Assembly (NCBI GenBank): GCA_016748015.1
Contig: JAAOMT010000478.1
Location: forward strand, 1-43,864
DNA: 43,864 bases
Origin: Geosiphon pyriformis uo1
Taxonomy: Eukaryota; Fungi; Glomeromycota
Direction of reading: 5' to 3'
The notes beneath the pieces were generated by a model. The model did no database searches, had not been told where the DNA came from, and saw nothing but the letters and a program-made list of their open reading frames with translations. A program made the translations under genes and the position numbers. Each line of letters opens with the position of its first letter. Positions within the stretch are counted from its first letter, which is position 1. Below are positions 15,464-43,864 of this stretch, piece after piece.

Positions 15464-18400
15464 ATGGCGGAAGAATATCAAGTTCCCGAGGTCAACCAAG
15501 TAGCTGAAACTCCGCAACTATCTGCGGAAGTTATCGAACCATCTCGAACTGAACCACCCAACGTGGAACCTATAACCCAAGAGCTGACAATGGAAGAGGT
15601 GGTCGAAAAAACGCCTCCCAATTTACAAGATGCTGCTGTTCCAGTTTCTATTAGTGAAACAGTTTCAAATTTGGTTCTCACGGTTCCTGATGAACAAGCA
15701 ACTCCTTTTCTTGAAGAGTCTGTTCACTCTCCCTTTGTTGTGTCAACGAAACAAGATGAAACACAAGAGCCACCTCTAATTATTGAAGAAATTGAAGATG
15801 TTACGGAGATCATCGTTGATCAACAACAGAAACCGACTGAGGCCCTCGTTGACCAAGAAAAAGAACAAACTGAGGCCTTCATTGATCAACAAGAGGAACA
15901 GAACGAGGTCTTCATGGTCCAACAACAGGAACAAACTGAGGTCATCGTTGATCAAATACAGGAAGAAAAGGAGACCATCGTTGATGAAAAACTAGAAAAA
16001 ATTGAACCTTTCCCTCATCAAAAAATGTTAACTGAACCTATCATTGAGCAGCAAAAGGAGCAAATTGATGCCTTTGTCCAACAACAAGAACAGACTGATG
16101 CCGCCTCTGAAAAGCAACAAGAACAAATTGATTCTATTGTTCAATCGGTTCTAGAAAACCCCGAAATTGTAGAAGCAAAAGAAGACAAAACTGGTATTAT
16201 TCCTATTGATGCACAGATTTCTCCAACAACTTTGCCTATGGATTCGGCAGACGCCAACCAACAAGAACAAAAAGTTGAAAATGAATCATCGGATTTTTCA
16301 ACCGCACCTACAGACTTGACTAATTTATCCCAAGCGACATCTAGTTTGCTAGTAACCGAAATTAATTCTACAGAAGATATGGATTCCGATATAACCTCTG
16401 CTATTTTAGAAACTTCAGGGGACTATAAAAATGTTCCACCCCCCGCCTCACTTACCACAACAACTGGTGACGTGCAATTTCATGATGCGATGGCTAAAGT
16501 GAAAGCCATAGCAGCGAAGCTACAACAACAAGCTGCTGCTGCCGCTCAGAGTGCCTCAAACAACGTAGAGGCAGTAGCTAGTCCCTCCCCAAGTGGTAGA
16601 TTTTACTGATTTTTTCATTCAAATTATTCATTATTTATCCTAATACTTTCGTTTTAGGTTCTCATCAAGGAATAAAACGATCTCACGAGGATAGCTATAG
16701 CTCACATGGAACAAGAGATAGTAGTAGGGAAGATTATCGCGAAGATTATCGCCGTGATTACCGTCGACCATCAGAGAGAAATCGATACGAGGATTATGGA
16801 AGAGACTCAAAAAGAACTGCATATGATAGTGGTTCTTCAAGACCAGAATGTATTTTTATCTTATTTTTTTGATGTTTATTTTTCTAGAATGGTCTCAAAA
16901 ATTAGCCAAGAATTTTCATTAAAAGCCTCAAAAATTTTCCAGACGATAGCGGAAGGCATCGTTATGGTCTTGGCAGCGAAGAACGTCGAGCACATCACAG
17001 TTTGCATTATGGCCCAAGTGCAGATAATTCTCGTTCTGGCAATGTTCACGAAGAATTCAAAGTACCAAATGCAGTTGTTGGCCTAGTAATTGGTCGTGGA
17101 GGTGAAAATTTGAAAAGAATTGAAAAAACTACAGGTGCTAGAATCCAGTTTTCACAAGGCGAGCTTTCAAGTAAAAATCTTCCTTTCATTTTCATCAATA
17201 TTTTGTGATGGCATGCCAAAGACTGATATTATATTTTTCTAGATCAACCTCCTGATGTAGTTGAGAGGCGAGTCACTATCACTGGTACTATGGAAGATGT
17301 ACAAGCTGCTAAAGCAATGATTCAACAATTAGTTGATGACGCTACCAGTGGAAACACCTCTGGGCGCCGGGACTCATTTGGACCAAGCCGCACCACCATT
17401 ACGATTCACATTCCCAGCTCTAAAGTTGGTGTTGTGATAGGTCGTGGTGGTGAGACAATACGTGATTTGCAAGATAGAAGCGGAGCAAGAATTAATGTAA
17501 CTCCTGACAGTGCTGCTTCTCCAAATGCTAACGATCGTCCTGTAACCTTAATCGGAGATGATAATGCCGTTCAGCGGGCAAAAGCTCTTATAGACGAAAT
17601 TGTTAACACAGGAGATCAACCTCCTGACAGGGTATAGCTTGATTTTTTAATAAGCTTCAATTTCTTGAATAGGCCACTATAAAATTAATGTTCCTTATTT
17701 TTCGTAGGGTCATCCCAAAGATTATCCTATTAGCAATTATGCTAGCGGTGGTAATTCTTATGGTCATGATTCTCATGGATCAGGGAATTATGGTGGAAGT
17801 GGTCATTATGGTGGTCCACCTGGACCATATAATACTCCGCCTCCAGGTAAATCCTCACAGGAAACAGTAACTATTCAAGTTCCTAATGACACGGTTGGAT
17901 TGATAATTGGAAAAGGTAATAAAATTTTTCATTCAGTAATCATTATAGCTTTAGATTTTTAAAAAATGCCCTTAAAAAAATTTCAGGTGGAGAAACTGTA
18001 AGGCTTCTTCAACAACAATCTGGGGCTAAAATACAAATTGAACCTGTTCATGGCCCTCCGCCAGCTGACCGTAACGTTCATATTATTGGTAAGTGACGGA
18101 ATATTTAAGTGATTGTTTGCTTATGCCAAATTAAATGCCGCGAATTCAATGCCAGTCGTTCGATTGCTGTTTTGTGTTCATGATGATGATGCTCGTTGTA
18201 GGGACTGCTGAAAATGTTTCTGTCGCGAAATCTTTGATTCTTGAAAAAGCTGCTTCTGGAAATGTACATGTCGTTTGCCATCGCTTGTTGAGTGTGATTG
18301 CCTTGATTTTAAAAAATTTTTGATTTGATAAAAATGCTATTTTCTATTTTGGTTGTTTATAAATTCTGGTTTGCGTTTTTTATATTTTTTTGGCATTTGC

Positions 18401-20231: not shown

Positions 20232-20719
20232 TTAACGATAATGCCCCGGCTCGGGAAACTTCACCCCATCAAAAGTGATTTTACATTTTTTGCATACAGT
20301 CTTTTTTCGCGCGTATCCGCAAAACCGGGGCAAGCCTAGGCAAAACGCCCAGAAGAGGGTGCAAAATGTACTATTCCATGAATCAGTCAGCGAGCATCAC
20401 AAGTTTAATTGGAAAAATGAGACATGGAATTATATAGGTATTTCAAATTTGACACGTACTAATTTGATCGCAGTTCATGAAAACCTCCTTTAGAGCAGGG
20501 ACCCAATTGCGAAGCTATCCTATGTTGTTCAATGATTGCTGGGTCTGGTGAAAGTATTAGAGGAAATATGCATTTTTAAAATTGAAAGGTTTTCTCTCAG
20601 CAGAAAGTTTCAAGAACTTTTGATTCTTTTATTTAGAGTTCGGGTTAGGAGTAAATTCGCAAAATCATTATTGTACCTTCACTCGTTTTATAAAAATCCG
20701 CGTCACCAGGATAAGACAT
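20232..20719 (-). CDS. 88-aa cysteine-rich membrane-associated protein, BRI3 (brain protein I3)/LITAF-like; absent from the ORF track
   Basis: Exons 20719-20677, 20544-20460 and 20370-20232 with GT-AG introns total 267 nt: MSYPGDADFYKTSEDPAIIEQHRIASQLGPCSKGGFHELRSNYTFCTLFWAFCLGLPRFCGYARKKTVCKKCKITFDGVKFPEPGHYR*. Confidence 0.8.
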
Positions 20720-21336
20720 TATTTAAATTATAAAAGGGATATCGTTCTTGAGTGTTTAGTTAAATTTATATATATTTTTGTTTACGTTTGTTTTGCTATA
20801 TATGTAATTTAACAGAAATTATATTATATGAGCAAAGTCAAAAATCTATTTTTATACAAATTTATACAAAATAAAACTTAACAATTAATTTACAATTAAT
20901 GGTGCTTATATAATTTATATATATATAATATAAATAAGTGTTAATTAATATTAAAAAAAAATTTAAAACAAAAATCAATTTATTTTTTGTATTTTGTATA
21001 TTTGTAATTTTTGTTAATAAACTAAAAGATTTAATTGTTTAAACTATTTAAAATTTAAAATTTAACTTGAATTTATTGAATATATAATTTTTTCCATTTT
21101 TGTATTGGATTTTGGTTTTTTCTTAATTTTATAAATAATATTTTCACATTTAAAAATAATTTTTATTTGTAGTTTTATCTCCAAATTTTAATTTACATAA
21201 TTTTTTTTACATAACATCCAATTTTTATTTTAATAAACTAATTCAATTCTGTACATCGTTGAAAGATTACACTGATCCTATAATAATTTTGATTTTTGAA
21301 AATTTTTAGGCCATCATCTGATCAGACACACTATAA

Positions 21337-21821
21337 ATGCCTCAACACCCATTAATCACATTTCGACATCTGCTTCGTGAAGTAAATTCTCAGGTAGTTT
21401 AATAAATTTTCATTCATTTTTTCTTTATAAGTGATCACTAAATTATCTCATCTGCTAAAAAAAACCACCCAGTTCACAAAACTAAACAAAAATCCTCTCT
21501 GGAGAAACGAACTTTTCCGTGCCTTTCGTCAAAAGGGATATGTTAAAAATGATGCAAAAAAAGAACAATTATTACGTGATGCCCAAAATGTTTTGACTTT
21601 TTTGGAAAGTAATCGGAAATTTAGGGTAGGGAATTCAGATGTCCTTGAAAATCAATTTTCGATAGTTGATTATACTGATAGAATTAATGGTTGGCCCAAT
21701 TTGAAATTAGGAATTATTGGACAAGGCAAATCCGACACACAAGCAAAGCGTTCAAGAGCGTGTGGAAATGACAGCACATCGAGTGGGTTTGGAACTTCCG
21801 AAAGTCTATAATGAGGCTTAA
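21337..21821 (+). CDS. FMC1: Mitochondrial ATP synthase assembly factor FMC1-like (LYR family), 3 exons
   Basis: MPQHPLITFRHLLREVNSQ|FTKLNKNPLWRNELFRAFR...AQNVLTFLESNRKFR|ELLDKANP...ERVEMTAHRVGLELP. Confidence 0.82.
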
Positions 21822-25967: not shown

Positions 25968-26453
25968 TCTTTCATGAGCTGGAAATAATAGCCATCATAT
26001 AATCGAACCAAATTTGCAATTTTTTTATAATTACACTTTTGATACAATTTTGGCTTATCGCAAATTTACTCAAACTGAAAATTTACCCATGACCAAAAAA
26101 GCGGCCCACCATTGACTATGGAACTTAACTTTATTCCAAAAATGTTTAAAAAGTCCTTTTTTCTGTTATATCCCATCTCACTTCTATCCCATCACTCTAG
26201 ATAGCATTAATCTCCAACCCAACATCTTCACGGCTAATATGTACAACAACACGCTCTTTGGGCATGTCTTCTGATTTTTCCAAATAAGAAAAAAGCTACG
26301 GAGCAAAAACCACGAGGTTAAGGATAAAAACATAAAGGAACGTCGTTGGAGTGGGAAATAAACTTTGGTGGTGACAGCGGTTATTTTTGGTTATTTCGGA
26401 AATAACAATAATTATTATGATTACTAGTACGGAATCTTGATATATCATTTGCA

Positions 26454-27384
26454 TTACAACATAGTTAATTCCTAAATTGTATTTTAGTTTATAGTTAATT
26501 AAAAAGCGCATGTGGTAAGGAAAAGAGAGCATTATCAGACAAGAGGTTACCATAATGGCATTGACAATGTCGTTGTTGTTGTTGTGAAGGGCCCTTATAG
26601 CTTGACTGCGAGAGACGTTCTAAATAAGAATCCAGTTTGATAAAATGAAATTAATTTTTATTTCAAGTTAAAATAAAAGCAAAGCATCAAAACGTACAGC
26701 TTGATTCATGACCAATTCTACATCTTTAGGTTCGATCCCGGCGACATCCACTACATCATCATCATCATCATCATCGGCAACCTCTACCTTTGGTTTTTCT
26801 TGAGCAGCGACAGCAGCTTCAGCAGCTTGGAATTGCTGGGCGGCATTTGCTTGGGCTTGAGAATTTAGATCTTCAATTTTCGCTTCACCAAAAACAATGT
26901 AGCAGTCGGAATTTGCGGATTTGAAGACATCAGGGTTGGAGATGACAAAGAGAAGCTAATTTGATTTTTCGTGTATAATAACCAAGCAAATTTTTGTTAA
27001 AATAAAATTTTATTACGAAATGATTTATATCGTCCGTACGTTTTTCGGTCGGCGGATAGTGACGCGATTAATCCCCGGAACGACCTTTAGGCCTAATTTT
27101 GACATTGCTTTGCGCGCCTTTTTCTCGCCGCGACTTTGCAGCTTGGCAATATCGGCAGGTGCTGTACCAGGTGGAATACCACCTTCTTCTTCCAAGTCGG
27201 GAATATCATCGTCAGAGTCGTCGTCGGATTCCACGGTAGCCGATTTATTGAGGTCGTCGTTAGTTTGCAAAGTTTTCAAGCTAGCGCTAATATCCTCAAC
27301 TTTATTCTCCGATAATTTCTCTTCCTCAATCTTTTTAGCCTCCCCCTCGGTAATTTCCACTATCTTCTGTTCGACGTCGGCCAT
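26454..27384 (-). CDS. EGD2: Nascent polypeptide-associated complex subunit alpha, 4 exons
   Basis: [31 protein letters not shown]|[25 protein letters not shown]; UBA region [10 protein letters not shown]|[19 protein letters not shown]|ELTML*. Confidence 0.95.
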
Positions 27385-27582
27385 GCTAATAACAGGTAAG
27401 AGTTGCAAATGTTCGTTTCGAGGTAAAAGTCAGTGTATGTAGAGAAGCTAAATTATTTAATAAGGTAGCACATAAAAACAGCGTTTCCTAGTTGGCAAGC
27501 GAAGATCAGAAAACTGTCGAGCGAACACTTTGAGGTTTCAGACTTTTTAATAGAACAGGTTTATGAGGGATCAATCGATTCT

Positions 27583-27601
27583 AAAAAAAAAAAAAAAAAA
27601 A
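27583..27601. repeat. A19 homopolymer in the EGD2/AMFR-like divergent intergenic region
   Basis: Read directly; could act as a nucleosome-disfavouring poly(dA:dT) tract (inference). Confidence 0.8.
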
Positions 27602-27982
27602 GTGTCTTTAACCCGCGAAATGGTTAAAATATCTTTATAATTTAGCATCCAAAGGCATCCATCCATTAATAATTGACGCGTATTCTTTGCTGTTTGTAAA
27701 ATCTTTCGAAGTGAATCCGCCTAAGTACTACGACTTACATGGTAAATGCGGCCTCTTTTGAAACGTCAAAGGCAAATGAGGAAGAATTTGGCTTTGCGAG
27801 ATTTTTCTTTACCGTTGATGGCTCGAAGGAAATCAATCAGCTGGCGTGTACAATATTTCCCCAATCAGAGTTCGCCTGTTTGATGACATCATTAATTTTA
27901 TAAATGTATATAAATTGAGCTAGCTTAGTTTCAGGTATTCTCTCACTACCAAATTCTCAAATACTTTAAGTGCTTCTAGACA

Positions 27983-29524
27983 ATGTCAATTGACATTTTC
28001 AGTTATTCCCTTCAAGGGATCGACCTTTTAGATTTTGACTATAGAATTTTTGTAAGTTTCTTTTTGAACTTCTTCTGTTAGCCTATCTAATCACATAAAC
28101 ATAAACATTTTTCTTTTAGATTATTATCAATTTCGCATGTTGTTTCTTGTATCTTCTGGGGAAATTCACCCTTAAATTCTTTTTTGGAAAACTAAGAGTA
28201 ATTGAAAGCCAGGTATTTTAGAAATTGAGAGATCTTTCTTCGAGATAATTTACGTATACAATTCACTGACAATACGCTTTTTTATACTTCATTTCAGCAT
28301 ATGTATGATAGGCTACTCAATTTTCTTTTATTTAAGTTTGTATTTATAGGGGCCATATTAGAACCCAAATTGGAGCAGCTCCTCATATGGTCCACATGGT
28401 TTAGCATTCTTGGATTTTTAAGGATATTCAGCATGCTTTGCCGGGATCGATTTGAATATGTAAATTAAATGATTTGTTCATTTGTATATAATTTTATTCG
28501 AGATAATTGACTTGGCTCTACTTTGTAGTTAACATTTTCCCCAAATACACCTATTCAAGAACATGTACGGATACTATCCCTTTTGATTCTAATTTTAATA
28601 TCGGACGTATTTTGGTTTATAATGTGTTTGTCAGTGTTTCAGTCGATGTTTCTTTTATTGACATTCGAGGTATGAAAAGTATCTTTTCTCTACTTTTGAT
28701 CTGAAACACATTGATTAACAGCATAAAAATTTTTTGACAGTGCTTTACTCTTTTTCTTGACACTGTTCAAACGCTTGTAAAATATTTAATTCATCTGGGG
28801 GATCTCTATAGACAGGGTGTTTGGGAATCTAAAGGACTTTTTCTGTACTATACCGAATTTGTAACGGATTCTCTGATCCTTATTGCGACTTTGGGCCATT
28901 ATTTGCATATCATGGTAAGAATATTTTTATGAAGAACTTTATTCTTTTTCTGGATATTTATAAGCTTTTATAATTTAAGATACTTCATGGCGTCTCATTT
29001 ACTTTGATTGATGCTGTAATATTTTTGAATATGCGGAGTGTCTTTAACAATTTGAGAAAGAAAATTGTAGCATATTACAACTATTCACAAGCCGTTGCTA
29101 ATATGCAAAGCCAGTAAGTGATTAGATGAATTATTTTAGTTCATGAGTCACGATTTAATTATCTATTTTATAATACTATTAGATACCCAGATGCGACAGG
29201 ATCTGAACTTCAAGAGTATAATGATGATTGTGCAATATGTCGAGATTCGATGTCATACGCAAAAAAACTGCCATGCGGGCATATGTTCCATTTGTAAGTT
29301 AACATTTACTAAAATCAAATTATCTTCTCGGGCAATCCATTTAAAGTTTTCGCAATAGGTCGTGTCTTCGTTCGTGGTTAGAACACCATGGATCTTGTCC
29401 AACGTGTCGACGCTCCTTTATCAAAAACGAAACGCTCTTATCTGGCAAGGAGAATCTTTTGAGAAACAATATAGATGCATCATATGAAAGTTCAATGCAA
29501 ATGAACGATTCTTCCATTCGATAA
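27983..29524 (+). CDS. AMFR/gp78-like (Hrd1 family) ER membrane RING-H2 E3 ubiquitin ligase, 8 coding exons
   Basis: INFACCFL..FFFGKLRVIESQ|HMYDRLLNFLLFKFVF..LCRDRFEY|LTFSP..; RING CAICRDSMSYAKKLPCGHMFHLSCLRSWLEHHGSCPTCR. The start codon is less certain. Confidence 0.88.
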
Positions 29525-30399
29525 GCACATGATTGGCAATCTTGGAGGTTTCGAACTTTTGATTTCTCGACTTGATAATGCAAGAAAAACAATTGGATTT
29601 TGGAAGGTAAGCCAAAAATTGCGAATTTCGCAAGCCAAATGGCAACCCTAATCTTCAAAGATGGGAAAGAAGAGATTGTCACGCGAACGTTTGCGCGTAT
29701 AGTCCATTTGTTCGGAGAGTCATTTGAGGACTGACGCATAAGCGGATGATTGTTGAGTTTCAGAAGATTTCATATATACCGGCTGCTTGCAGCAATGGAA
29801 TATAATTTGAGGGCCAATATTATATCAAATATATTGGGAGGAGAGGACGAAAATGGTAGAATCAACGAGAATAGTTGAACCCAGAGGGTTTAAGCACTTC
29901 TTATAATGCAGAGTCAAAGGGAACATTTGAACAGCTAGCAAAATTCGGGATTTGATTTGTTTCAAATTATTTTGCATCTGCAATCCTAGGTTATTGTTTT
30001 TAACGTAAATTAAAATTTTTCATGGAAATTTATCATAATTATATTTTTAAACAATAATTGTCGAGTTCCCTTATATCATCATCCTTGCAACCCTTCCATT
30101 GGCATTTAAATAGGCAAAGTCAAATATTTCGGACGAAAATCTGTTACACAATAACATCCTCAGTAACGTGATCTCCCACAAAAATAATTTTAGTAATCAA
30201 TCCAAAAGTATAACTCAGGCCGTGACTTAGTTGTTCGGGTTTATTCAATTTGGTTTGCGTTGGCTTTATTTTGTTTGATCTTTTCATTTTTTATCTTGAA
30301 TAAAGCATTATTATATTCATAGTTAGATCTTTTAACCCGTGATATTTTATGATTTTCATTCAATTCTTAATTCTTTTAATTTTTTTATTGGTTGATTAT

Positions 30400-31926
30400 T
30401 TTGTTTATCACTTAATCTTTTTGCTTTAACAAAATATGATTTAATTATTAACTATTTTTAAGCATGTAATATATATTGTAATTAGAAATAAATTATATAC
30501 TTTTTACACATAACCAGTCATTTGAATTTACATTAAAATTACATTAAGTTAAACATTAAAACTTTTTCAAATTATTGTTTATTTTAATTTTAGTAGCTTT
30601 ATAACTTTTTAAATATAATTTTTTTAATAAGCTATAATTGCATTAAAGTTATTTTAATCTTAGAAAATACTAATTTTTTCTATTATAACAAAAACATAGA
30701 ATTATATATTAATAAATATTTTAATACAATTAAGTAAATTGTTATTTAAGTTTTAAAAAAAGCTTTATATTTCTTAAGTAAAAATAAAAAATTTCAGTTT
30801 TATACTAAAATTATTAAAATCAAATTTTAAATTAAGCTTTTAAAAAATAATTTTTTTATTAAGTTTTGTAATAATAACCAGTAAATATTTATAAATTGAA
30901 AAATTAAATCAATTTTTTTAATAAATTTAAAAAAACCAGTATTATAAATTAAAACCAAATTTTTTGATTTTAATACTTGTAATAATATTAATAATTAATT
31001 AATTAATTATTATTTTTATTTTTACAAAATAAACAAAAAATAATATAACTTTAACCAAAATAAAAAGTAAATAAAAGTATTATATTTTATAAATATTAAA
31101 CTAAATAATACTTAAAAACTTTTTAAAGAAAATTAATAAACAAAAATATTAAAAACACATTGTTTTTAAATAATCTTAAAAAAAATTGTTTATAATTATA
31201 TTAAAAATACTATATTTGTTATTAATAAAAATTATTTTTTTATTTAAATTTTTATATATAATTAACTATTTAAATTTATGTTAAAACATTATTAAATTGA
31301 ATTAAAAAAAGCCAAAAAAAAGTTCAATTTACAAATTTTATTAACAGAAATATTCAAATAATAACTATTAAAGATAAATTGACTTATTTATTATAATAAT
31401 ATATTTACTTAAAAAATATGTTTTTATAATATTTATTTTATTATTATTTATTTAATTAAAGTTTATTTTAGTCTTAAAATTAGCAAAATTTTTAAACAAA
31501 CTAATTAAAATTAAAGCAAAACTTTTAATAATATCATTTTTTTAACCAATTTAGTTTTTGTTTTAAAATTAAATTGATTATTTATAGTTAAAAAAAAATA
31601 ATCAAAGTAACCAAAAAACTAATTAGTTAAATAACAGATTTTATTAATATAATTAACTTAAAAATTTAAAACTTCAAAAAATTTAACTTAAAATTAATTA
31701 TAAAATTAATAATTGTAATAACAAAAATAATTAAAAATTAATAACAAAAAAAGTCAATAATATAAAAGTTTTGATATATAAATTAAAACTAATAAAAAAA
31801 ATATTAGAATTATTTACAACTTAATTAAAAACTTAATTAAAAAAAATAAAAATATCTTATAATCAAATAATTTAAACTTTAATATTTATAATAACAATAA
31901 TATTCAAATTTTTTTTATTAATATAT
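30400..31926. other. AT desert, probably hypermutated repeat relic
   Basis: A hand count over 30481-31140 gives roughly 11% GC with no CpG. Confidence 0.75.
31911..31926. repeat. Target-site duplication, left copy (TTTTTTATTAATATAT)
   Basis: Identical 16-mer at 38654-38669; abuts the poly(A) tail of the LINE. Confidence 0.7.
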
Positions 31927-32055
31927 TTTTTTTTATCATTTAACAAGTAAAGTCCAAACACTACTTAGTACTATACATCAAAGAAATGATTTAAACTAAG
32001 CACAAATTATGTACTTTCTACATGTGACCAGCCATTCGAGCCAGTCAGGACAACA

Positions 32056-35000
32056 CTACACAATTATATTAACAGAAACTGGGTCATTAATACTTAAGAA
32101 AAAAGAACAAGATTTGTGAAAGCCAAAACGGATGCCAAAAACTTCAACAATACCAAGCAATTTAACTACACCACCTAAGAACCTCGACACCAAACCAGAA
32201 ACTGAGACAGAAATTGAGTCATCCATTGAGATTAGACCATTTCTTTTCATGTATGTGTGATGCTTGGCATGGACCAGCCAAATGTTATTTCTGAAAGCAA
32301 CACAAAAAGAGCACACAAAATCAGCAATCTTGATGCCAGCAACTTTGGGATTATGGAAGATGGAAACAGCCTTCTGAATCCATCCTTTGAATACAAAACC
32401 CTTGTAAAGAGCTGAGAATACCAGAAAATCTGAAGCACAGGTCAACAGCAGCTGCAATACACTTGAAGAAGAGAGGGCAAGACCAGAAAGTGTTTTCCAA
32501 GAAGACATACAGGATTCCAAAACCTGATGACAAGCTGAATCATCAAAAACACATGATCAGATACCTCCACCTCACCACAATACAGACACAGAACACTAGG
32601 ATAACATCTATTATAAATGCACTTTCGAACAGCCATGGGAAGCCAATGGTGTAAAGCCTTCATAAGATAAGTATGAATGTCAACAGTGCGTCTGCTGGTA
32701 AAATCTGTTGCCATATGTGAATCAGAATGCCAAACTCTGAAAGAACTAGGCCAATCAACATCCAAGTGCAAATCTCCAGATAGAAATCCAGAACTGGAAC
32801 TGACCTTCCAACACACCCGACAAACAGCATGAAAAACATTTCGAACAAAGTGTCTAGAATTACCAGAGACAATACTATCATCCACCAACAAAAAATGTTC
32901 ATCAACACAAGGAGGAAGAAACCAATCAGAGAGAGTTGTAGTGTTAGTGATGCTATCAGCCCAATTATTTCCCAACATACCAGAGTGACTCTTAACTTTG
33001 TGCCAGCTAACTCGTAAATTTTTACTGTGAATAACATTCCTAATATGCTGGTGCTCAACCCAACACTGATTGTGAAAGTCAGAATACACCAAGTTAATTT
33101 CTGACATGTAAGCATCCAAGGCTGCCTGACTGTCTGAAAACAGACAAACAGAACGAGCCACAAGTATGCACTCTAGAGCCAATGCTATAGCCTGCAATTC
33201 CGCCAAAGTAGACGACACCAAACCCCGAACACTGATACCTAAACCCAAGTTAATGTCCTCAAAAAATGCAGCAGTCCCAGCCCTACAACCAGTCGTGCCC
33301 AAATTTTTCAATGACCCATCTGTATACACAGACAAACTATCAGTGCCAACCCGAGAAAGACAATCACATACAGATGCAAAATCACCAGAACCACAAATGT
33401 CTACAGGACCAACACCAACCGAGACCAAAAGAAAAGAACGGAAAGCCACAAGAAACTCAACTGAACATTTGAACCACTCAGAGACTGGACCATGAGGATC
33501 TAGCCTCTTCCACCACTTAAAGATGAGCCAGCTAAAGACATCACCATGACGATCCCAAAGCTGGTCCACGAAGGCAATGCCATAATACTAAAAGAACGGT
33601 AAAAACTTGAAAAACAAAGATTTATCAAGAATAACAGACATAAGAACCCTACCACGAAACCAGAAGGCACTGGCCAAAAAACCACCCAAAGACAGTTTGC
33701 AGTCAAGAAGAATGGAAACCACACCAGCCAAGAAATTATTAAAAACACTGACACGAATACAAGTAAGAGAGATTAAAGAATGGATCAGCCACCAACACAG
33801 AACTTACAAGTCATGAGACCTGTAACTAAACAAACATCCCAAAATCTCACTAGAGTTCACAAAACTAATAAGTGAAGCAACCTTACTTTCTGACTGACAC
33901 TATGAAAAGGACTTTAAACCATAAAAAAAAGAATGGTAAATCATATTACTAGGAAAATCCAGCGGAAGACCAGATTTAAGTTTCAAGCCTTTGTGAACCA
34001 GAGCATCCCATTTGTTGCAAGTACCAACAGAAACAAAGCTGAACTGCGTTCTATAGCTGATTATAGGATGGAAGACTGCCAACACCAAATACAAAAATTG
34101 CTTATCCAAAACCATTTTCTTCAGGACCAGATTGGTGAAAAAACAAACATCTAAATTTGCCTTAGCCAAACTAGGCTTCAAAAGACCCTCAGTCGAGATA
34201 AAAATACCCAAGTACTAATGAGATTTACTCTTTTTGGCAATGGAAATCGGCGAGCCACTGATGGAAAGAAAAGAATTGCTGACCCTGCAATTGATGGGAA
34301 TGACCACTGTCTTGTCATTATTGATTGAAATGTTATTAATTTGAAAAAATTTGCCAGCTACATTGAGAATATGCTGAGTAGCATTTTGACTGCTACCAAC
34401 CCAGATTGTATCATCGACAAAAGCACTAGCAGCAAAAAAAGAAAAGAGCCCAGCCTGAGATTTAGCATGACCACTTTTAGACACAAAATGAGAATTTAAT
34501 CTATACTTGCACACACTTTCTTGATGCTTGACTTCACACAACAGAGGATCATAAAATATACATCACAAAAGGGAGGAAAAAACCTCTCCTTGATCCAGAC
34601 CATCATGCACGTGATAGCCATTTGTCAACCCAAAATCTGTCATCACACAGTTGGTGCAATTCTTATGAATACTGCCAAAAAACCGAATAAATTTACTGCA
34701 CATCTTAATCTTGACCAAACTATTCTTAAGGTGCTCCCAGCCAACTGAATTGTAAGCCTTTTGCATGTCTTGCAAAACCAATTATAGCTCTCAGTTTTTC
34801 TCCAGAGTGTCTTCAACAACTGAACCAATAGCAAAAATAGGTGACTGAGTCATTGTACTCTTTAAAACTGAAAAATTGTTATTATGTAGGACATCATGAG
34901 AGCTGCAAACCAGTGAGATTCTGTTTGAAAGAATCTTGGAAAGAATTTTGCAAGCTGTTTCGATCAAAGCAATAGAACAAGTATTTGTGAGAACATCTTC

Positions 35001-36725
35001 CCACTCATAGGGCTTGGGAATCATTGAAATCCAAGCCTTTTTTCAAGAACCAGATACTGATTCACAAGATAAACAAGAATTCAACAGGACCAGAAGCAAA
35101 CCCAAAACTGACTTATCACAATGTTTCTATAGTTCATTAGAAATACCTGAGAGACCAATGGCTTTGCCATCAGACAGATTGGAGACCACATGATGCAACT
35201 CATCAAAATCAATTGCACACATCACCTCAGAGAAGGCCTCATCAAAAACGTAGTCCAAAGATCAGTACTGATGAGACCAAGTATCAGAAACATCATTGAC
35301 CACCACATGCTTCCTGGTCCATCCTTCTATAATATCATCTACTTTGGATTTTACCAAATCAGACTCAAGAACTAACTCATTACTCACAACCAAATGATCT
35401 AAAACCACCTTGTGAAAGAGTCATTCCAGCATGCTTCTAATCATGTAATCTTTATCCACCTCAAAACTCTTTATTCTCTTATCTATAATAGACCTGATGT
35501 TTGCTTCTTTAGCTCTTAAAGACTCAGTGAGTTTGGACGGATGATAAGATCTCCTAGCACTAAAGAGAGCAGAACAAACATCATTAGTGCCAGCACCAGA
35601 ATCCACCACACTCTGCACAACTGAAGTCTTATCATCGTTCAAAGAAACCCAACATCCCATAAGAGACTCAAAATTTGCAACACATTTCTTACATGAAACC
35701 TTGACAATTTTGGAAACCAAAAGCTTCAATTTGTGAAATCTTGAAGATTCCTTGGTGAAAACATTATCGAAGTCTTTGAACCACTTTTTCTTGAACACTT
35801 CACCAGCTGAGAAAACCATTATCTTGTGAACAATGTCCCACATTGCATCCAAGTCTGAAAACTGTGTAGAGGCAACAAACTCATTTGAGAACATTGTAGT
35901 ATTGGCCAACGTGGCACCTTTAAAATTGTTCCATCTAATCTTATCAGCACTCTTAAAATCGAACTTCTAATGATCTTTATTTGTCTGTTTGTGAAGAGAA
36001 TTCAACTATGCATTTAAAAGCCCACCCAAGCCTATGGACACAGAAACAGTCTGGTAATCCATGTCATAATGTTTGCTAACCTTCAAAACATCATGATGTA
36101 CAATCGCATTGACCAGACTTGGGGAAACAAATACATAATCAATAGTCTTCTTCACACCTCTTGAATTCTCTCACATAGGACTTTTTACAACTGGACTACT
36201 TAACAGAGAGTTGACTAGCCCCAAATTAAGGCATTTCCTAAAACTCATGCTTTTATGCAAACCATTTTCATTGAAATCACCCCCAAGAATGATGAAAGAA
36301 GATTCATTAACAGCCTTTGTGATGAGAGAATTAATCTTACCAGTCTGAGAGAACTGAACCACCAAAGAAGCACCTGCGTAAAGCCCTAAAATTGATACCG
36401 AAAGTTTATTCTTAAACAGCAACTTGATAGATAGGAGCCAACCAGGCACCTCAGAAACCTTGCACACATGTCTCACCAAAGAAAAATCCACGAAGATCAC
36501 AACACTAGCATCCAGATAACCAGAATCCAAGCCAGAGGTAAACACCCTTACATCATCAAATTTGTTGATGATCCAGGAGCGAACTCTTCTCATTAACTTT
36601 GTCTCTGTAAAAATTGAAATCAAATTGTTTATGTTATTGTGCCAATAAATAATGTCATCCTGTTTTGCAGGATTATTTATTCCTCTAATATTGCATGTGG
36701 CAACCTTCCAAACAAGCTCACTCAT
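32056..36725 (-). pseudogene. LINE ORF2 (endonuclease, reverse transcriptase, RNase H, zinc-binding), disrupted by stops and frameshifts
   Basis: Collinear ORF fragments 36171-36725, 35421-35909, 34791-35024, 34563-34781, 34215-34541, 33900-34211, 32442-33569 and 32056-32520. Confidence 0.9.
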
Positions 36726-38505
36726 TGAGAAGGGAATTGAAAGTTCACACTGCCAGCCAAAACCGAACTTTCAAAATGAGCAGACAAGCTCAAAACAGAT
36801 TTGAAGAGTCTCTCTAACATATTTTCCAACCTGGTAACTTGGGGAAACACTGATAAGTCCACAATTACAGCAGTCTCACCCAAAACTGTTCCTATTACTA
36901 TATCACCCTCCGGATTCTGTGATGGGAGGGTTACTGGCAGCTAACATCCAAGGCTAGGCTGGGAAACTGCCAGCATGAGTGAATCCAACCTCTTAGCCAA
37001 CTCACCAATTTGTCTCACAAGACTGATGAGACTGCTTTCAATACTGACTAGACGTTTTTCCAATTCATTTACAACAGAAGGAAGAGGTTCATCATTAACA
37101 ATGGAATCAAATCATGACTTGCTACCAGAGGGGAGGGGAGTGGAAGAAGCACCAGCAACCAATGCCCAAGTTTTATTACCAAATACTAGAGGATGGGAGA
37201 TGGAAGTAGATTTCTTTGTGTAAATCCTCACCAATCTAAGCTGGTCCTGAGCTAAAAGGGAAGCCCTTTTGCCACTCAGAAATGCAGCATTCTTGACAAA
37301 CCTACAACTAAGAGACATATGACCAAAATTCTTGCAAACCACACATAACACCAAAGAAAGATGAAACCAGTGGAGACCAACACCCTTTATAACCGAAGTC
37401 ACTGCCATTGCATTAACCATATCTAATTCAGAACCAAAACACACAAAGGCACAGCAAACATGAGAATAATTCGAGGAATTGTGATCAATGAAGCAAGTTT
37501 TTTCACCAATAGAACCAATAAAGTCTCACAAATCATGAGCTGTGGTTCTCATGAGGAGAGTATGTAGCAGAGCCCTAAAATTATTTCTGGCATCCCATAA
37601 TTGTTTGTCGATATCAGCCCTGGCCACACAAACCACATCTTTCCTGATGAAGATGGACCACTTAGAAGCCAATAACTCAATTTGTGTCTGATCTTCTAAT
37701 TCGATAATCATCTTTTGCCACAAACCCACTAACTGCATTTTGATCACCTTAATCTTCCCAAATTTAGACACTGCAGCATGCACAGCCTCCACAGAAGTTC
37801 CCAGAGAAATTTTCTTCAACACAATAGCCCAATTCGTACGATTGTTTACCAAATGCTTAAGATTGGTGTTTATCACAATACCATGATCATTTGCCAACTT
37901 CCCAGCAGCCATCATTGCCTTTTCCGAAATGAAAGTCACACAAATAACTCCACCAAATTTTGAGAAAGTAGAAGCCCCCCCAAAACCATTTACACTTGAA
38001 AAAATTTTCCTGATAAAACTCAATTTTTTCTGAGAAGACCTCCTAGCAATGGCCACAAGATCAATATCTAAAGCAAAGGATTTGCGAACAGGCACTTGAA
38101 TAGATGGTTTGATAGGTAGAAGGGGCAGGAAATGAAAGGAATCATCTAACATGTCATTATCTGTATTAACAGTACTATAATCAATCATACCCAAAGGCTT
38201 CCCTAACACCTCTTTGGTCTTCACACACAAACTTTTTGGCATTGATTAGGATCTCCTTCCGCGAAAGCACCACTCTTATCATAGTCAACACTGGTTTCCT
38301 CAACCAAGCACTCCTCCTCCATGTCAATACTCTCAGACTCAGTAGTGTCACCTGTCTTAGAACTCTATAAACAAGCACCAGGAGCTTTAGCAGCAATCCC
38401 TCTATTATCAATACTTTCTGCCAATACACCTCTTTTCTTTTTCTTCCTTGACACAACCACCTTGAAACCACTCTCAGAACCAGAAACTTTAATAGTCTTC
38501 TTCAT
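36722..38505 (-). pseudogene. LINE ORF1 (nucleic-acid-binding, zinc knuckle), disrupted
   Basis: Fragments 37526-38242 and 37112-37444 (CVVCKNFGHMSLSC knuckle); homologous to 39822-40271. Confidence 0.8.
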
Positions 38506-38653
38506 AACAGCAATAACAGGGCCAACAGTGGCCTTGTAATTAAAGAACGGTTTTGATTTATTGTACTGAATGGTAAAAAACTTTTTTCAAAAAAACTTTT
38601 GACTCTTTTTTAGGAATTTTGGACAAAAGAGAAAAAGAAATTTTTTTTATATA

Positions 38654-38669
38654 TTTTTTATTAATATAT
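38654..38669. repeat. Target-site duplication, right copy
   Basis: Identical to 31911-31926. Confidence 0.7.
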
Positions 38670-39365
38670 AATATTTATACAAAATACTAATTTTTAAAAC
38701 AGCAAAATTTAAAATTTTTAAAAACTTAAAAATTATAACAATAAAGTATTAACAATAATAAAAATTAAGAAAATAAAAAATAAAACAGATTTGACTACCA
38801 ACTTAAAAAATTAAATTATTAATTTAAAAAATTAATTAATTTGGTTTAAAATAGTTTTTAAAATAATACTTTTTTTTTGGTTAATTAAAATAAAAATTTT
38901 AATACAGTTTTTTTAATCAATATAAACCAGTTGTTAAAAACAATAATAACAAAAAAAACTTCTTAAAATAAACAATAATATATTACTATAAACTAACAAA
39001 TTTTAACTTAACAAAAAAACTTTACCAAAATACTTTAAATATTATTAATATTATTAAAAATATATTAAAAAAAACATTATAAAAAACAATAAAAACAAAA
39101 AAAAACAAAATTATTATAAAAAATTTTACAATTTTAAAAATAATTAAAAAAACAAAATTATTAATAACAGATTTAATAACAATATTTAAAAAACTTAAAC
39201 AAAATTTATATAAAACTACTTAATATTGTTTTTTAAAATTAATTTAAATTTAATAAAAGTCAATTTAATTTTAAAAATAATATTAAGTATTAAAATTAAA
39301 ACTATTTATTTAAAAAATTTTTAATAACTAATAATTGTTTTTTAAATACTATTAAAGATAATACA
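38670..39365. other. AT desert between two head-to-head LINEs
   Basis: Very low GC; contiguous with 30400-31926 once the LINE is removed. Confidence 0.7.
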
Positions 39366-39369
39366 AAAC

Positions 39370-41656
39370 TTCTTTCTCTTTTATATCCAAAAAACTCCAA
39401 AGAACATTTTTCTGAAAAAAAAGTTTTTTGTTTTTTTCTTATTAGCTTATATTAATATTTCTTTATCCAACAATCCTTTTATCATGAATTTAAAAGCCAC
39501 TTCAGGTAACAACATGTCTAAGAAAAAGGCACTCAAGAGTGTTTTTTATGGCCTTGCTAGTGGTTTTTTTTACATAAGAAAAAAGTAGTTCTTGAGAAGA
39601 TCAAATACTTTGGTAATGAAAAAAATATCTTTTTGAACAAGTCTGAATCTGATAACAATGTGTATTTTAATGTTAATAGTTTATCTGGAGATGACAAAAA
39701 TATTAGCATAACTGGTATTAATGGTGGCTCTTTTTTAAGCTCAGCTGCCAATATTCTTAGAGCAAAATGAGTTAATATTAGTGCTAATTTTGGCTTTCTA
39801 CTCAGTTCTCCCGATTTTGTTATGGATGATGATGAAAAAGTCTTTCTTTCTTCTTGTTTCCCAATCTCCTTAGATAAAAAATGGATTAACACTAAAATTG
39901 TTAAATTTCAAGTGGAGGTTGCTATTAAAAAGTTGTTTGCTTTGGACATCAATCTTTTGACAGTGGAAAACAAATTGGTAACAATGAAAACTCAAGTAAT
40001 CAAGAAATTATTTTCAGTAATTAATAGTTTTGGGGGGACCACTACTTTCTTAAAATTTGAAAAGATTATTAAATTCACATTTACATCAGAAAAAAACATG
40101 AACAAAGTGACATCATTGGCTAAAGAAAATAGAATTAAAATAAACAATAATCTCAAAAGACAAGAAATACATTTAGATTGGGCTGTAGTTATCAAAAAAA
40201 TTCCTATGAATATGCTAAAAAATATGATTTTCACTGCAGTGGCTGAATATGATAAAATAGTGTTGATCTGATTGCAATTGGTTGGGTTGTAGCAAAAGGC
40301 TGTAATGAAATTTGCTAAATTGGCTCAGGCTGATTATTTGGTAGTGAGATGGTCATTCCTAATCAGAAAAAATTTGGTGTATGTGGCTAAAGCTATGGAA
40401 AATTGAGATATCTGGGCATTAAGGGATCAGTTTAAAGCATTTTTGTTTACTTTATTAATGGAAACAATTGCACATAATCTTGGGATTTTTTTAAAAGAGG
40501 CTGGTAGAAAAACTTTCTTTATTAATCAATTATTGAAAACTGGCAATAGAATTCACTGTGCTGTAGTTTGTTTTAAATTTGATAAGACATTAAAGTTTGC
40601 TTTTTACATGGAGCCAATTTTTAATAATGTTAAGCTCTTTTGAACAAAAATGAATCTGGTGCAGTATGAAAAATATAGAAGGTTTGGTTATTCTGCTTTG
40701 GAGTATAACATATTAATTGCATCCACTTTTAAGTCTTCAAAACCATTTAAAAAAGTTGCTTCAGATGAATGTTGCCTTTAGTTGGCAAAGTTATATGAGA
40801 AAAAAAGTGTTCCTATTTTCTGTCCTGCTGTCTTTAATAGCAAGTTTTGGGTACAGATAGTCTTACTTGCTTTCTCTTTTGGTGGTTTTGGCTTAGGCCC
40901 TAACTTGTCTTTCTCTGATATTCCCCATGTTGAAAAAAGTTTGTCTGTTAGTCAAATTGACTTATTTATTAATGCTCACTTGAATTCTTTCAAATGTTCC
41001 TTAGAGTTGTTGACAGATTAAGTGTCTGGCATTTTGCATAGATTAAACAGTATAGATCTGATGCCTTTGGTGTCTGCCTTTTGATGTCATCCTTCTATTG
41101 TATTCATTTTGGCTAATACAAACTCAAGTGTAAATATGATTTTGAATAGTTTTTCTATCTTTTTTGTTATTTCTTTTTTGATTATAGATGATACAGTTTT
41201 GGATTTGAGCCTGAATAAATCCAAGATTCTTATCATCAAGGTAGGTAGATTGGAATTTAAATTAGTTACTTTGGAGGTTTCTATTAATATAGTCTTGGTA
41301 AGGTTAGATCAATTGTATACTGGTTTAGACTCTTCTATATCTTCTTTTTCTCTATAAGTGATTTTATCTGGAAGATAGTCACATGTAATGTTAGGAGTTT
41401 GAACAATTTGGTTAAACAGAAAAATATTATTAAATGGCACATGAATTTATGCAACTCAATTTCTATTTTCACTAAGATAAAACTTAAGAGTTGTGCTGGG
41501 CTTTGACTTAAGAACAAGTTTTCTAGTTTAAGGGTTTTTAGCTTTGAATTGAATTCTGGCCATTTGGGCTTAGAAGTTGTAATAATTTTGAATGAAAATT
41601 TTGCTCATTATATATGCAAAGTTTCTAAAGTTCCTGAATGTCTTATTTTTGTTTGT
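39370..41656 (+). mobile_element. Heavily mutated LINE 5' portion (5' UTR, ORF1 from ~39484 to 41357, start of ORF2 endonuclease), interrupted by an LTR element
   Basis: KKLFALDINL..IKKLFSVINSFGG..WAVVIKKIP aligns with RKSFALDIDL..IRKIFSSVNGFGG..WAIVLKKIS; FIWKIVTCNVRSLNNLVKQ..ISIFTKIKL aligns with the ORF2 start at 36725. Confidence 0.88.
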
Positions 41657-42105
41657 TGTTACTTATAAAGAAAACATATAAAAAAAATAGTAGAAAAACA
41701 GATAGACCAATAGGAAAGTAGTAATTAGCACATAAGCATATTGCTTAGCAATATGAAGCAATGTCAGAAATTATGGCATATTGCTTAGCAATGTGAAGCA
41801 ATGTTAAAAAATTAGGGCATATTGCTCAGCAATGTGAGCATTGCTTAAAAAATTATAGCACATTGCTCAAGAATGTGAATGATCTTGTAAAATCTAAATT
41901 AGGTATATATAGCAAGAGCATTAGAAGCAGAAAAAACAGAATAATTACCAAGATCTTCCCATTAACACATCTCTATTAGAATTATCAATATTAATAAATA
42001 ATTATTCACTATCTAAACTTTTTTCCCCATTATTAACACTTCATGTTAATAGTATCAAATACTTAATTACATTGGAACAATAGCTCTTGATCACAGTTAT
42101 TAACA
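41657..42105 (+). repeat. Putative 5' LTR (449 bp)
   Basis: Starts TGTTA where LINE homology stops and ends TAACA; internal tandem repeats; TATATATA at 41904. The partner LTR is not in the window. Confidence 0.65.
41736..41880. repeat. ~3.5 tandem units of 40-41 bp, each with a palindromic core
   Basis: Units start at 41736, 41776, 41817 and 41858; core CATATTGCT-T-AGCAATATG and variants. Confidence 0.85.
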
Positions 42106-43864
42106 GGATACTAACTTTATTGCTTTGGCTTATATTTTATTTTTTTAATTTTTTTTTGTATTTTTATTTCTTTTATTGTTTATTAATTGATTAAAAATTA
42201 AATGCTGAGTTATTGATGTCAAGAATAACTTGGTAAAAGACCCCAAAGGAAGAGTATAGCAATTAAAAAATTTACAGATAGCTTACCAGAAAAACACAAC
42301 TGCCAGAATAAACTGGCCACTATACTGAAGAAAAAAATTTGACAGAATTGCAATTCTGGAAGGCTACTAATAAAACAACTATTGAATCTCTATTCATTAT
42401 ACAAAAAACTCCAATCCAAAACCTTCAAATCATGAAAACTTTTAAATATTACCAACATAATTCAGCTACTAAACACCAAGTTACAAATTTGTTATTTGAT
42501 TTGAGACCCCAAATAATTATCTGTAACATTTGGTGCTTTCTGTAAGATATAGTTTTACAAAAAATCAGCAACAACAACCATCCAAAAGTGACAAAATTAG
42601 AAAAAATAGAGACAAATCATTTAAGATTTACCAAATTTTTATTTCAGCATTATTGTTAACACTTAAGATTAACCAACAATAACCTATCAGCAAAATCTGC
42701 CTTTAACTTTTACATTAATGAAAAAATCTTATATTTGCTAGGAGTATTAGTAAAAACTGACTCAACAAGAAGAAATTTCTACAATGAATTAATTCAAAAT
42801 ACCAGCCTACTAGTAAATTATAACTTTATGGCAATCCTTACTGAAATCAATAGAGAAATTGAAAATCACACTCAACAAAGATATCCAATTACCTATGTAA
42901 ACAAAGGCAAAGAAAAACTACAAACACCAGCAGTAATATCTTAAAAAATACAACCACCCACTTGGAAGAAAACAAGAGTAGAATTACTAATCAACCCATC
43001 ATATTACTATATATCTGAAAGTGCCATTAACATTTTATCACCAGGCATGTCCACCTCAAATGTGAAACTATCATTAGTCCAACTTTTATTTCAAAGTAAA
43101 CAAAAAAAGCAGAGTTATTAGAAATCTATGGTAATTATTTTGAAGAATTTAAATCATAATCAATGATGCCATCAGAATTTCGATCACTATCACCTCCACC
43201 AGATTTTGGAATCACAAGTCTTTGTGAAGTAACTGAATCAAAAGAAAAGGAAAACAAAAATCAAGAATTTAATTACTAAAACCCAATTTCAGAAAACCCA
43301 AAAAATCAAACTCAGCAAAATCAGAACAATCCAAATTCCAATATCATTAATTAGCAAAACTTACCTCCAGAACTTGTGATAGATCTGTTACCAGTTGTCA
43401 CACCACCACAACAGCCAATACAACCACAACAACTACTTTAACAACCACCATAACAACAGCAACAAATTACAGCACAAATGATTTACATTCCAATTGTTAA
43501 AATAGAAAAATTTACTGGCAAAGAAAACAATGCTCAAGTATGGCTTAATAACATAAGAAAAGCCATTACAGCCAATGGATAGAACAATACTAGAGCATTA
43601 CAAGCCATTTTTTATTTTCTCCAGGATATCACTGACTTATAATATCAGAATTTGACCTAGAAACCCCAAACTTTCAATGCATTTAAGCTAGAATTTCTAA
43701 AATATTTTAGCAACAGCAACAGCATTAATTGTTTGGTTAATATATTTACTACTATTAAGCAATATTATCAGACAAAATTAGAGATATTGTTTAGCATGAA
43801 ATTACTCTTATAAATTTTATCATTAATTAGCATATATTATTGTTTCAAATTATCACTTATTACA

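Follow-up and report, generated by a model that had tools for sequence, protein, structure and literature searches.

Gradual C>T decay, with CpG as the main and TpC as the second target, as the probable origin of AT-rich repeat deserts in the fungus Geosiphon pyriformis

The AT-rich block at 30400-31926 of contig JAAOMT010000478.1 of Geosiphon pyriformis is best explained, with a probability that we put at roughly 0.6, as the end state of repeats eroded by gradual, methylation-linked C>T decay, in which CpG is lost fastest and TpC about twice as fast as cytosine after a purine. The contig was analyzed at its full length of 43,864 nt, hereafter the window. Cytosine was lost in one direction and on both strands, the context ranking was seen in the LINEs, AT-rich DNA among the genes lacked the signature, and both another desert and one fragment of the block were of LINE origin. 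Geosiphon belongs to the Archaeosporales in Glomeromycotina, and LTR sequence is reported to make up 41.2% of its genome (PMC11952901). As a relative of the arbuscular mycorrhizal (AM) fungi, it lies outside Dikarya, where the sequence-only reading of this DNA knew of no comparable system.

The composition of the block was counted on both strands, with 2000 mononucleotide shuffles as the dinucleotide null. The GC content was 10.3%, in line with the 11% and the lack of CpG estimated at the outset. TpC was found 37 times compared with 69.9 ± 6.0 in the shuffles, none of which was that low, and the TpC deficit thus outlasted correction for composition. ApC was in excess (93 versus 71.9 ± 6.2, p = 0.0005), and CpG was absent (0 versus 3.9, p = 0.013). 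CpA occurred as expected (73 versus 71.8), and TpA was below expectation, not above it (270 versus 305). In the sub-block 30481-31140 (10.9% GC, no CpG), an earlier hand count of 42 ApC/GpT and about 15 TpC/GpA proved exact. The CpG-free run around the block spans 30338-32037, and the surviving CpG at 30338 is 62 nt from the block edge.

Two other deserts of the window, desert 1 (1860-4720) and desert 3 (38640-39370), had looked alike by eye and were alike by count, with 257 ApC, 105 TpC, and no CpG between them. The 5' neighbors of the surviving cytosines were indistinguishable between the block and desert 1 (p = 0.85), and all three deserts lay at a floor of 9-13% GC. In the pooled deserts, 15-34% of cytosines survived in purine-C-H contexts versus 3-7% in TCH. 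CCT (3/157) and TCC (2/67) were nearly gone, and CCA (32/131) and ACC (28/83) survived. The claim that many CpA/TpG are left held against composition but not against the better-kept LINEs of the window, since C/(C+T) before A was 0.63 in those LINEs and only 0.13 in the deserts. CpA was lost along with the other contexts and was simply not favored, being retained only relative to composition. The RIP indices of the block were 1.12 and 0.78, which would pass as positive under the usual cut-offs. The block scores as RIP-positive because ApC survives, not because CpA is lost, and index-based RIP calls can be misleading for this reason.

The host gene region at 5000-30250, which carries Pho88, WD40, ribosomal S4/S9, KH, and NAC domain genes, was used as the control. 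The genes of the window are intron-rich and lie between transposons. Control segments were picked within this region by GC alone, not by annotation, giving 54 segments with a total of 5514 nt at 22% GC. They contained 366 ApC and 525 TpC, with a CpG observed/expected ratio (o/e) of 0.95 (p = 6e-11 relative to the block). Even the 19 segments richest in AT (17% GC) had 125 ApC, 156 TpC, and a CpG o/e of 0.66. Since the ApC:TpC relation was opposite and CpG was kept, these results indicated that the signature is not a genome-wide bias of AT-rich non-coding DNA. Within the window the loss was confined to repeat DNA, which agrees with the proposed targeting of repeats and the expected absence of the signature from single-copy DNA. 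Among the genes, the AT-rich stretch 20785-21257 runs for 472 nt without CpG, and the wider interval 20600-21500 has no TpC deficit. Scans with transposon proteins gave no match in 20785-21257. At 15770-16024, six 33-nt tandem units form acidic Q/E-rich repeats at the N-terminus of the KH-domain gene.

The clearest case of a desert with a known past was desert 1 (plus strand, 12.8% GC). Its part at 1860-4240 is a LINE ORF2 together with the LINE 3' end (157 bits to ORF2 proteins versus a null of 26), depleted by C>T/G>A changes, and DNA alignments of 1.7-2.3 kb link the desert with the window's two LINEs. At conserved codons, 125 of 178 C/G were lost and 151 of 154 A/T were kept. Cytosine survived at 32 of 95 sites after a purine; at TpC and CpC the counts were 7 of 46 and 7 of 43, respectively (p = 0.006). 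Desert 1 is a dead LINE, which is direct proof that such deserts are repeats. Earlier stages of decay are present as well. The 3' part of a young LINE (1-1857, plus strand, 46% GC), with an open 572-codon frame and RNase H, served as the reference for the family spectrum. The 5' part of an older LINE (39400-41680, plus strand, 30% GC) and the gag region of a decayed Gypsy element (41700-43864, plus strand, 29% GC), the latter without a visible TpC bias, have almost no CpG; the older LINE is at an intermediate stage. Across both, 39812-43181 (29% GC) runs for 3369 nt without CpG, so that CpG was exhausted long before the non-CpG cytosines. At the start of the Gypsy element (41736-41851), probably in its LTR, a unit of 35-41 nt occurs three or four times in tandem.

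The block itself is mostly decayed DNA of unassigned origin and is probably a nest of old repeats. A decayed LINE 3'-end fragment of 49 nt was found at 30480-30528 on the minus strand (40.8 bits versus a shuffled null of up to 25.7), and compared with the LINE at 31994-32042 it had 15 differences, of which 12 were C>T or G>A. A second, more decayed 3'-end fragment at 31249-31310 (minus strand) shares a purine/pyrimidine-identical run with 30501-30540; this assignment is weaker, as its 23 bits are at null level. At 30561-30601 (minus strand) there was a borderline DNA match to the LINE ORF1 at 40121-40161 (30.6 bits versus a null of up to 25.7), and the protein-level scan of this stretch against LINE ORF1 was at null level. 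A derivation of the block by deletion between ORF1 and the 3' end stays borderline. Two tandem 750-nt LINE copies were ruled out, because the homology stops within about 60 nt. With a decay-aware codon aligner, which did recover desert 1 at 157 bits, the rest of the block gave nothing above null against 120 ORF2, 70 ORF1, and 23 gag proteins, and Tandem Repeats Finder reported three weak arrays in its left part. We infer that this remainder was repeat DNA too.

A mid-aged, near full-length LINE (31926-38640, minus strand; ORF1 and ORF2 with RNase H; 39% GC, CpG o/e 0.22) lies between the block and desert 3. The latter has 9% GC and the same signature by composition; its origin is unassigned, and it is possibly the other half of the block. 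A weak, possible target-site duplication of 16 nt, all A/T, has its left copy at 31911-31926; the right one occupies 38654-38669, at a distance of 14 nt from the 5' end of this LINE. The same length was reached in 1 of 81 other desert windows. Because the mid-aged LINE splits the block from desert 3, with this possible duplication, the desert is probably older than the insertion, and the LINE probably inserted into it. Around desert 3, two diverging LINEs of different subfamilies have similar A/T-tract 5' ends (38560-38640 and 39370-39450), with only the desert between them.

The mutation spectrum was derived from proteins of the LINE family. The query frame 3-1718 gave the ORF2 set (the best 120 of 200 protein matches), 119 of which were from Geosiphon pyriformis (G9A89 tags) and one of which was the window's own. 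The close set comprised 25 of these 119 copies, namely those in which 200 or more codons aligned and no more than 3% required a transversion. The copies are annotated proteins, and the spectrum covers amino-acid-changing sites only. At 544 informative C/G sites, C>T/G>A was found in 1099 of 10231 site-copies, versus 194 of 9468 (0.02) for the reverse change, and the loss was thus one-directional on both strands. The C>T/G>A rates in the 25 copies were 0.28 at CpG and, outside CpG, 0.11 at TpC, 0.10 at CpC, 0.08 at ApC, and 0.06 at GpC; pyrimidine-C differed from purine-C with p = 3e-9 over sites. TpC and CCC/TCC were the fastest non-CpG contexts, and ACA and GCA were mutated at 0.07-0.08. CpG was at the top whatever its 5' base, and TCG (57/232, 0.25) was no faster than ACG (105/358), CCG (74/247), or GCG (84/297), which reached 0.28-0.30. 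The ranking in the LINEs is CpG > TpC > purine-C.

This preference was replicated by an amino-acid-class test, in which CpG sites could not be removed and the effect is therefore diluted. Among 71 copies in seven other ORF2 clusters (from the 94 copies outside the close set), the rate was 0.140 at TpC versus 0.108 at purine-C (p = 6e-5), and in 59 of 70 ORF1 proteins it was 0.172 versus 0.110 (p = 3e-7). In 23 Gypsy gag proteins, the TpC bias was not significant (0.135 versus 0.112, p = 0.26). Single copies of the window gave a 5' bias of 0.84 versus 0.67 in desert 1 and of 0.50 versus 0.22 in the older LINE (p = 0.014). The single mid-aged LINE had none (0.16 versus 0.17; 0.19 versus 0.19), and in the gag of the window the bias was reversed but not significant (0.40 versus 0.27). 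The proposed preference for a 5' pyrimidine thus stands for LINEs, mainly as TpC; it is a roughly 1.5- to 2.5-fold modifier with CpG as the main target, and it does not extend significantly to Gypsy gag.

At the DNA level, 4700 read-derived contigs from one public run (X1) were placed on positions 1-1840 of the young LINE; three further runs contributed 0 or 1 contig, which carries no weight. A transition was found at 580 of 842 C/G places (219 C>T at 303 C and 361 G>A at 539 G), with only 72 other changes at C/G. Over the last 100-160 nt (1675-1840), the summed contig depth rose to as much as five times the level in the body of the LINE. Several contigs joined positions 925, 970, 985, and 1235 to about 1709-1719, and many loose ends lay at 1709-1710; many short or chimeric LINE copies seem to share the 3' end of the young LINE. 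Among the public "hypothetical proteins" of Geosiphon, many are gene models pieced together from decayed LINE copies, and their differences are mostly C>T/G>A. Metagenome contigs (one-protein and alignment queries) and viral contigs yielded no related LINE loci.

The LINE sequence of the window was then decayed in silico to the GC of the deserts, and 16 trinucleotide classes were compared. The deviance was 1575 for CpA-type RIP, 1111 for CpA plus CpG, 221 for uniform decay, 171 for CpG plus uniform decay, and 167 for TpCpG, and these five models were rejected. The early rates of the LINE family, used without fitting, gave a deviance of 61, and a hand-fitted model (CpG x5, TpC x2, CCY x2.5) reached 17. 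For the block alone, with back-mutation and transversions added, TpC x2-3 fitted best from either a LINE or a gene-region start. The early rates thus largely predict the end state of the deserts. The young LINE has 39 CpG in 1800 nt, and the decay of CpG alone can therefore not bring GC from 46 to 10%. CpG-only decay is also ruled out by the non-CpG C>T rates of 0.06-0.11, compared with the reverse rate of 0.02, and by the misfit of CpG plus uniform decay. The statement that passive decay of methylated CpG is insufficient was borne out.

The tempo of the loss was read from the same copies. Among the 119 copies, those with more transversions had generally lost more C/G (rho = 0.50), with losses of about 0.04-0.24 in the copies listed. 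In 24 copies, that is, the close set minus one lone-cluster copy, the two strands were mutated equally (0.105 and 0.097; per-copy strand bias p = 0.81). Neither clustering (p = 0.14) nor same-strand runs (p = 0.72) were found in these annotated, lightly mutated copies; annotated proteins under-sample the heavily mutated copies in which bursts would show, and shared ancestry (mean sharing 0.27) makes the p-values optimistic. The per-copy rates formed a smooth range of 0.05-0.15 that tracked transversions, and tandem GG>AA/CC>TT changes were seen 6 times versus 6.0 expected by chance. Because the loss tracks transversions and is unclustered, gradual decay is favored over a one-shot RIP, and the label of RIP-like hypermutation given to the block was not supported in this respect. 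Desert 1 had about 1.2 hits per C/G site, whereas transversions came to about 0.04 per base and reverse transitions to 0.02; per transversion column it had about 15 C hits versus about 10 in the copies. The older LINE had more transversions (24/125) yet less C loss than desert 1. Neither of them fits a strict clock, and alignment noise and subfamily distance blur both; projection onto DNA inflates transversions (0.078 as DNA versus 0.007 as protein for the mid-aged LINE).

A gradual, methylation-linked process would work as follows. The repeats would be cytosine-methylated at CpG and, more weakly, in non-CpG contexts with a preference for 5' T. A DNMT1/DNMT5-type enzyme may mark CpG, and a DIM-2- or RID-type enzyme that prefers 5' T may mark the non-CpG sites. 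The marked cytosines would deaminate to T over many cell divisions, either by passive deamination of 5mC or by a Dim2-type mitotic mutator. The loss would accumulate until GC is about 10%, and new LINEs would then insert into the AT-rich remains. High CG methylation is reported for the transposons of Rhizophagus (10.1101/2021.03.30.436303), and CG and CHH methylation for those of Phycomyces (PMC11258239). Since these relatives methylate their repeats, a likely substrate for such decay may be present in Geosiphon. Neurospora DIM2 is reported to methylate all contexts, with its flanking preference left open (PMC11315935). In Zymoseptoria, Dim2 reportedly drives mitotic C>T change in repeats at CpA; that this known mutator prefers CpA, not TpC, counts against methylation-linked decay of the kind proposed here (PMC8016269). 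The repeat decay may also have been selected as a defence, as the sequence-only reading had it.

The nearest competitor, which we regard as unlikely although ahead of the other alternatives, is that Geosiphon, and perhaps the early-branching AM fungi, run homology-triggered RIP with a retained RID-type enzyme of CpG/TpC target, acting in many weak rounds at a sexual or parasexual stage. The restriction to repeats, the action on both strands, the sharp edge marked by the CpG at 30338, and the common GC floor of the deserts all agree with it. Many weak rounds would look clock-like too, and the ratio of C loss to transversions is somewhat higher in desert 1 than in the copies. This reading is weakened by the lack of clusters and strand runs, by the smooth per-copy rates, and by CpA not being favored. 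By a rough reading of depth, some 200 copies at 80% identity or more also persist, with an open 572-codon frame. RID in AM fungi is disputed: PMC8298701, itself citing another study, states that they keep RID and DIM-2, whereas two surveys place RID outside Mucoromycota and do not list it for AM fungi in their accessible parts (PMC5751038, PMC13297926). Motif VI of RID is reported as QT/ET instead of NV (PMC6572847). Less probable still is ordinary neutral decay, by which the deserts would be the oldest junk, shaped by a general AT bias, a mild 5'-pyrimidine effect, and CpG deamination, with introns differing only by constraint. It would account for the scaling with transversions, and the deserts are indeed rich in indels and overlain by younger insertions, but the AT-rich gene-region segments keep CpG and have more TpC than ApC. 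Moreover, the hits per site in desert 1 far outnumber its transversions and reverse transitions, and spontaneous fungal mutation spectra are far less skewed.

An origin in editing of retroelement cDNA by a TpC-preferring cytidine deaminase, or in UV dipyrimidine damage in poorly repaired repeats, is improbable. APOBEC3-type enzymes and UV favor TpC and CCC/TCC, which were indeed the fastest non-CpG contexts here; yet CpG led whatever its 5' base. Editing of cDNA should be one-stranded and clustered, and no one-strand clustered hypermutation was found in the 24 copies, which disfavors a single-strand deaminase as the driver. UV should spare ACA and GCA and yield tandem CC>TT, but non-dipyrimidine cytosines were not spared and tandem changes did not exceed chance. 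It is very unlikely that the block was never GC-rich, being either an element AT-rich by nature or an artefact of the assembly, with a chance resemblance to desert 1. Most of the block matches nothing tested, and reads were placed on the young LINE only, which would suit this idea; the LINE 3'-end fragment with its C>T/G>A differences and the context profile shared with desert 1 speak against it. So does the finding that a share of 0.90 of the words sampled from 26000-34500, an interval in which the block makes up 18%, is present in one run, which is possibly the source run and not independent.

In published surveys, as far as their accessible parts go, RIP-like signatures are restricted to ascomycetes plus TpCpG in Pucciniomycotina, with none in a mycorrhizal fungus examined. 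A kingdom-wide survey of 2025 reports them only in ascomycetes, with Gigaspora, Rhizophagus, and Diversispora in its table; Geosiphon was not found in the accessible supplementary files (PMC12543289). RIP signatures were also reported as undetected in Gigaspora margarita and Mucoromycotina (10.1101/2021.03.30.436303). The accessible parts of PMC7862722 and PMC12344493 give background on the topic only. Our literature search, which covered few subscription papers, returned no report of such a pattern in Geosiphon or Glomeromycotina. The age of repeat-directed mutation in fungi, and whether it has any tie to sex in Glomeromycotina, can be tested from existing assemblies. If true RIP were at work, it would predate the split of Dikarya and Mucoromycota. 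RIP acts before meiosis, and RIP in Geosiphon would thus be a genomic trace of hidden sex in a lineage that has long passed as an ancient asexual. The context ranking allows a concrete prediction of what a methylome should show and of which specificity a DIM-2/RID-type enzyme of Glomeromycotina would have.

The ranking CpG > TpC > purine-C, in repeats driven to 10% GC, is the context of none of the three described fungal systems. The pattern resembles the RIP of Neurospora crassa and other Pezizomycotina (RID, DIM-2) in its one-way C>T change on both strands, its AT deserts, and its sharp edges. The repeats had an excess of C>T/G>A on both strands, and the non-repeat neighbors were spared, as judged from control segments chosen by GC and from the CpG at 30338. 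It differs from Neurospora-type RIP in that neither a CpA preference nor a gain of TpA was found, and there was no sign of a burst in the annotated, lightly mutated copies. The Dim2 mitotic mutator of Zymoseptoria tritici is alike in being gradual and confined to repeats, for which the evidence here is the correlation with transversions and the lack of clustering; the tie to a methyltransferase is established there and would be an extrapolation in Geosiphon. More than 98% of its C>T changes are reported at CpA, with CpG spared, whereas in Geosiphon CpG was the top target, TpC was next, and CpA was not favored (PMC8016269).

The TpCpG hypermutation of Pucciniomycotina is also a C>T change of repeats in which CpG and a 5' T have a role. 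The reported target there is TpCpG, whereas in Geosiphon TpCpG was no faster than VpCpG and the 5' effect acted on non-CpG sites (PMC3318451). Rhizophagus irregularis (CG) and Phycomyces blakesleeanus (CG, CHH) likewise concentrate 5mC on transposons, and the available reports on them describe methylation, not erasure to 10% GC. Taken together, the process in Geosiphon ends as RIP does, its context sets it apart from the Neurospora type, and among repeat-directed C>T mutation systems it is best regarded as a variant.
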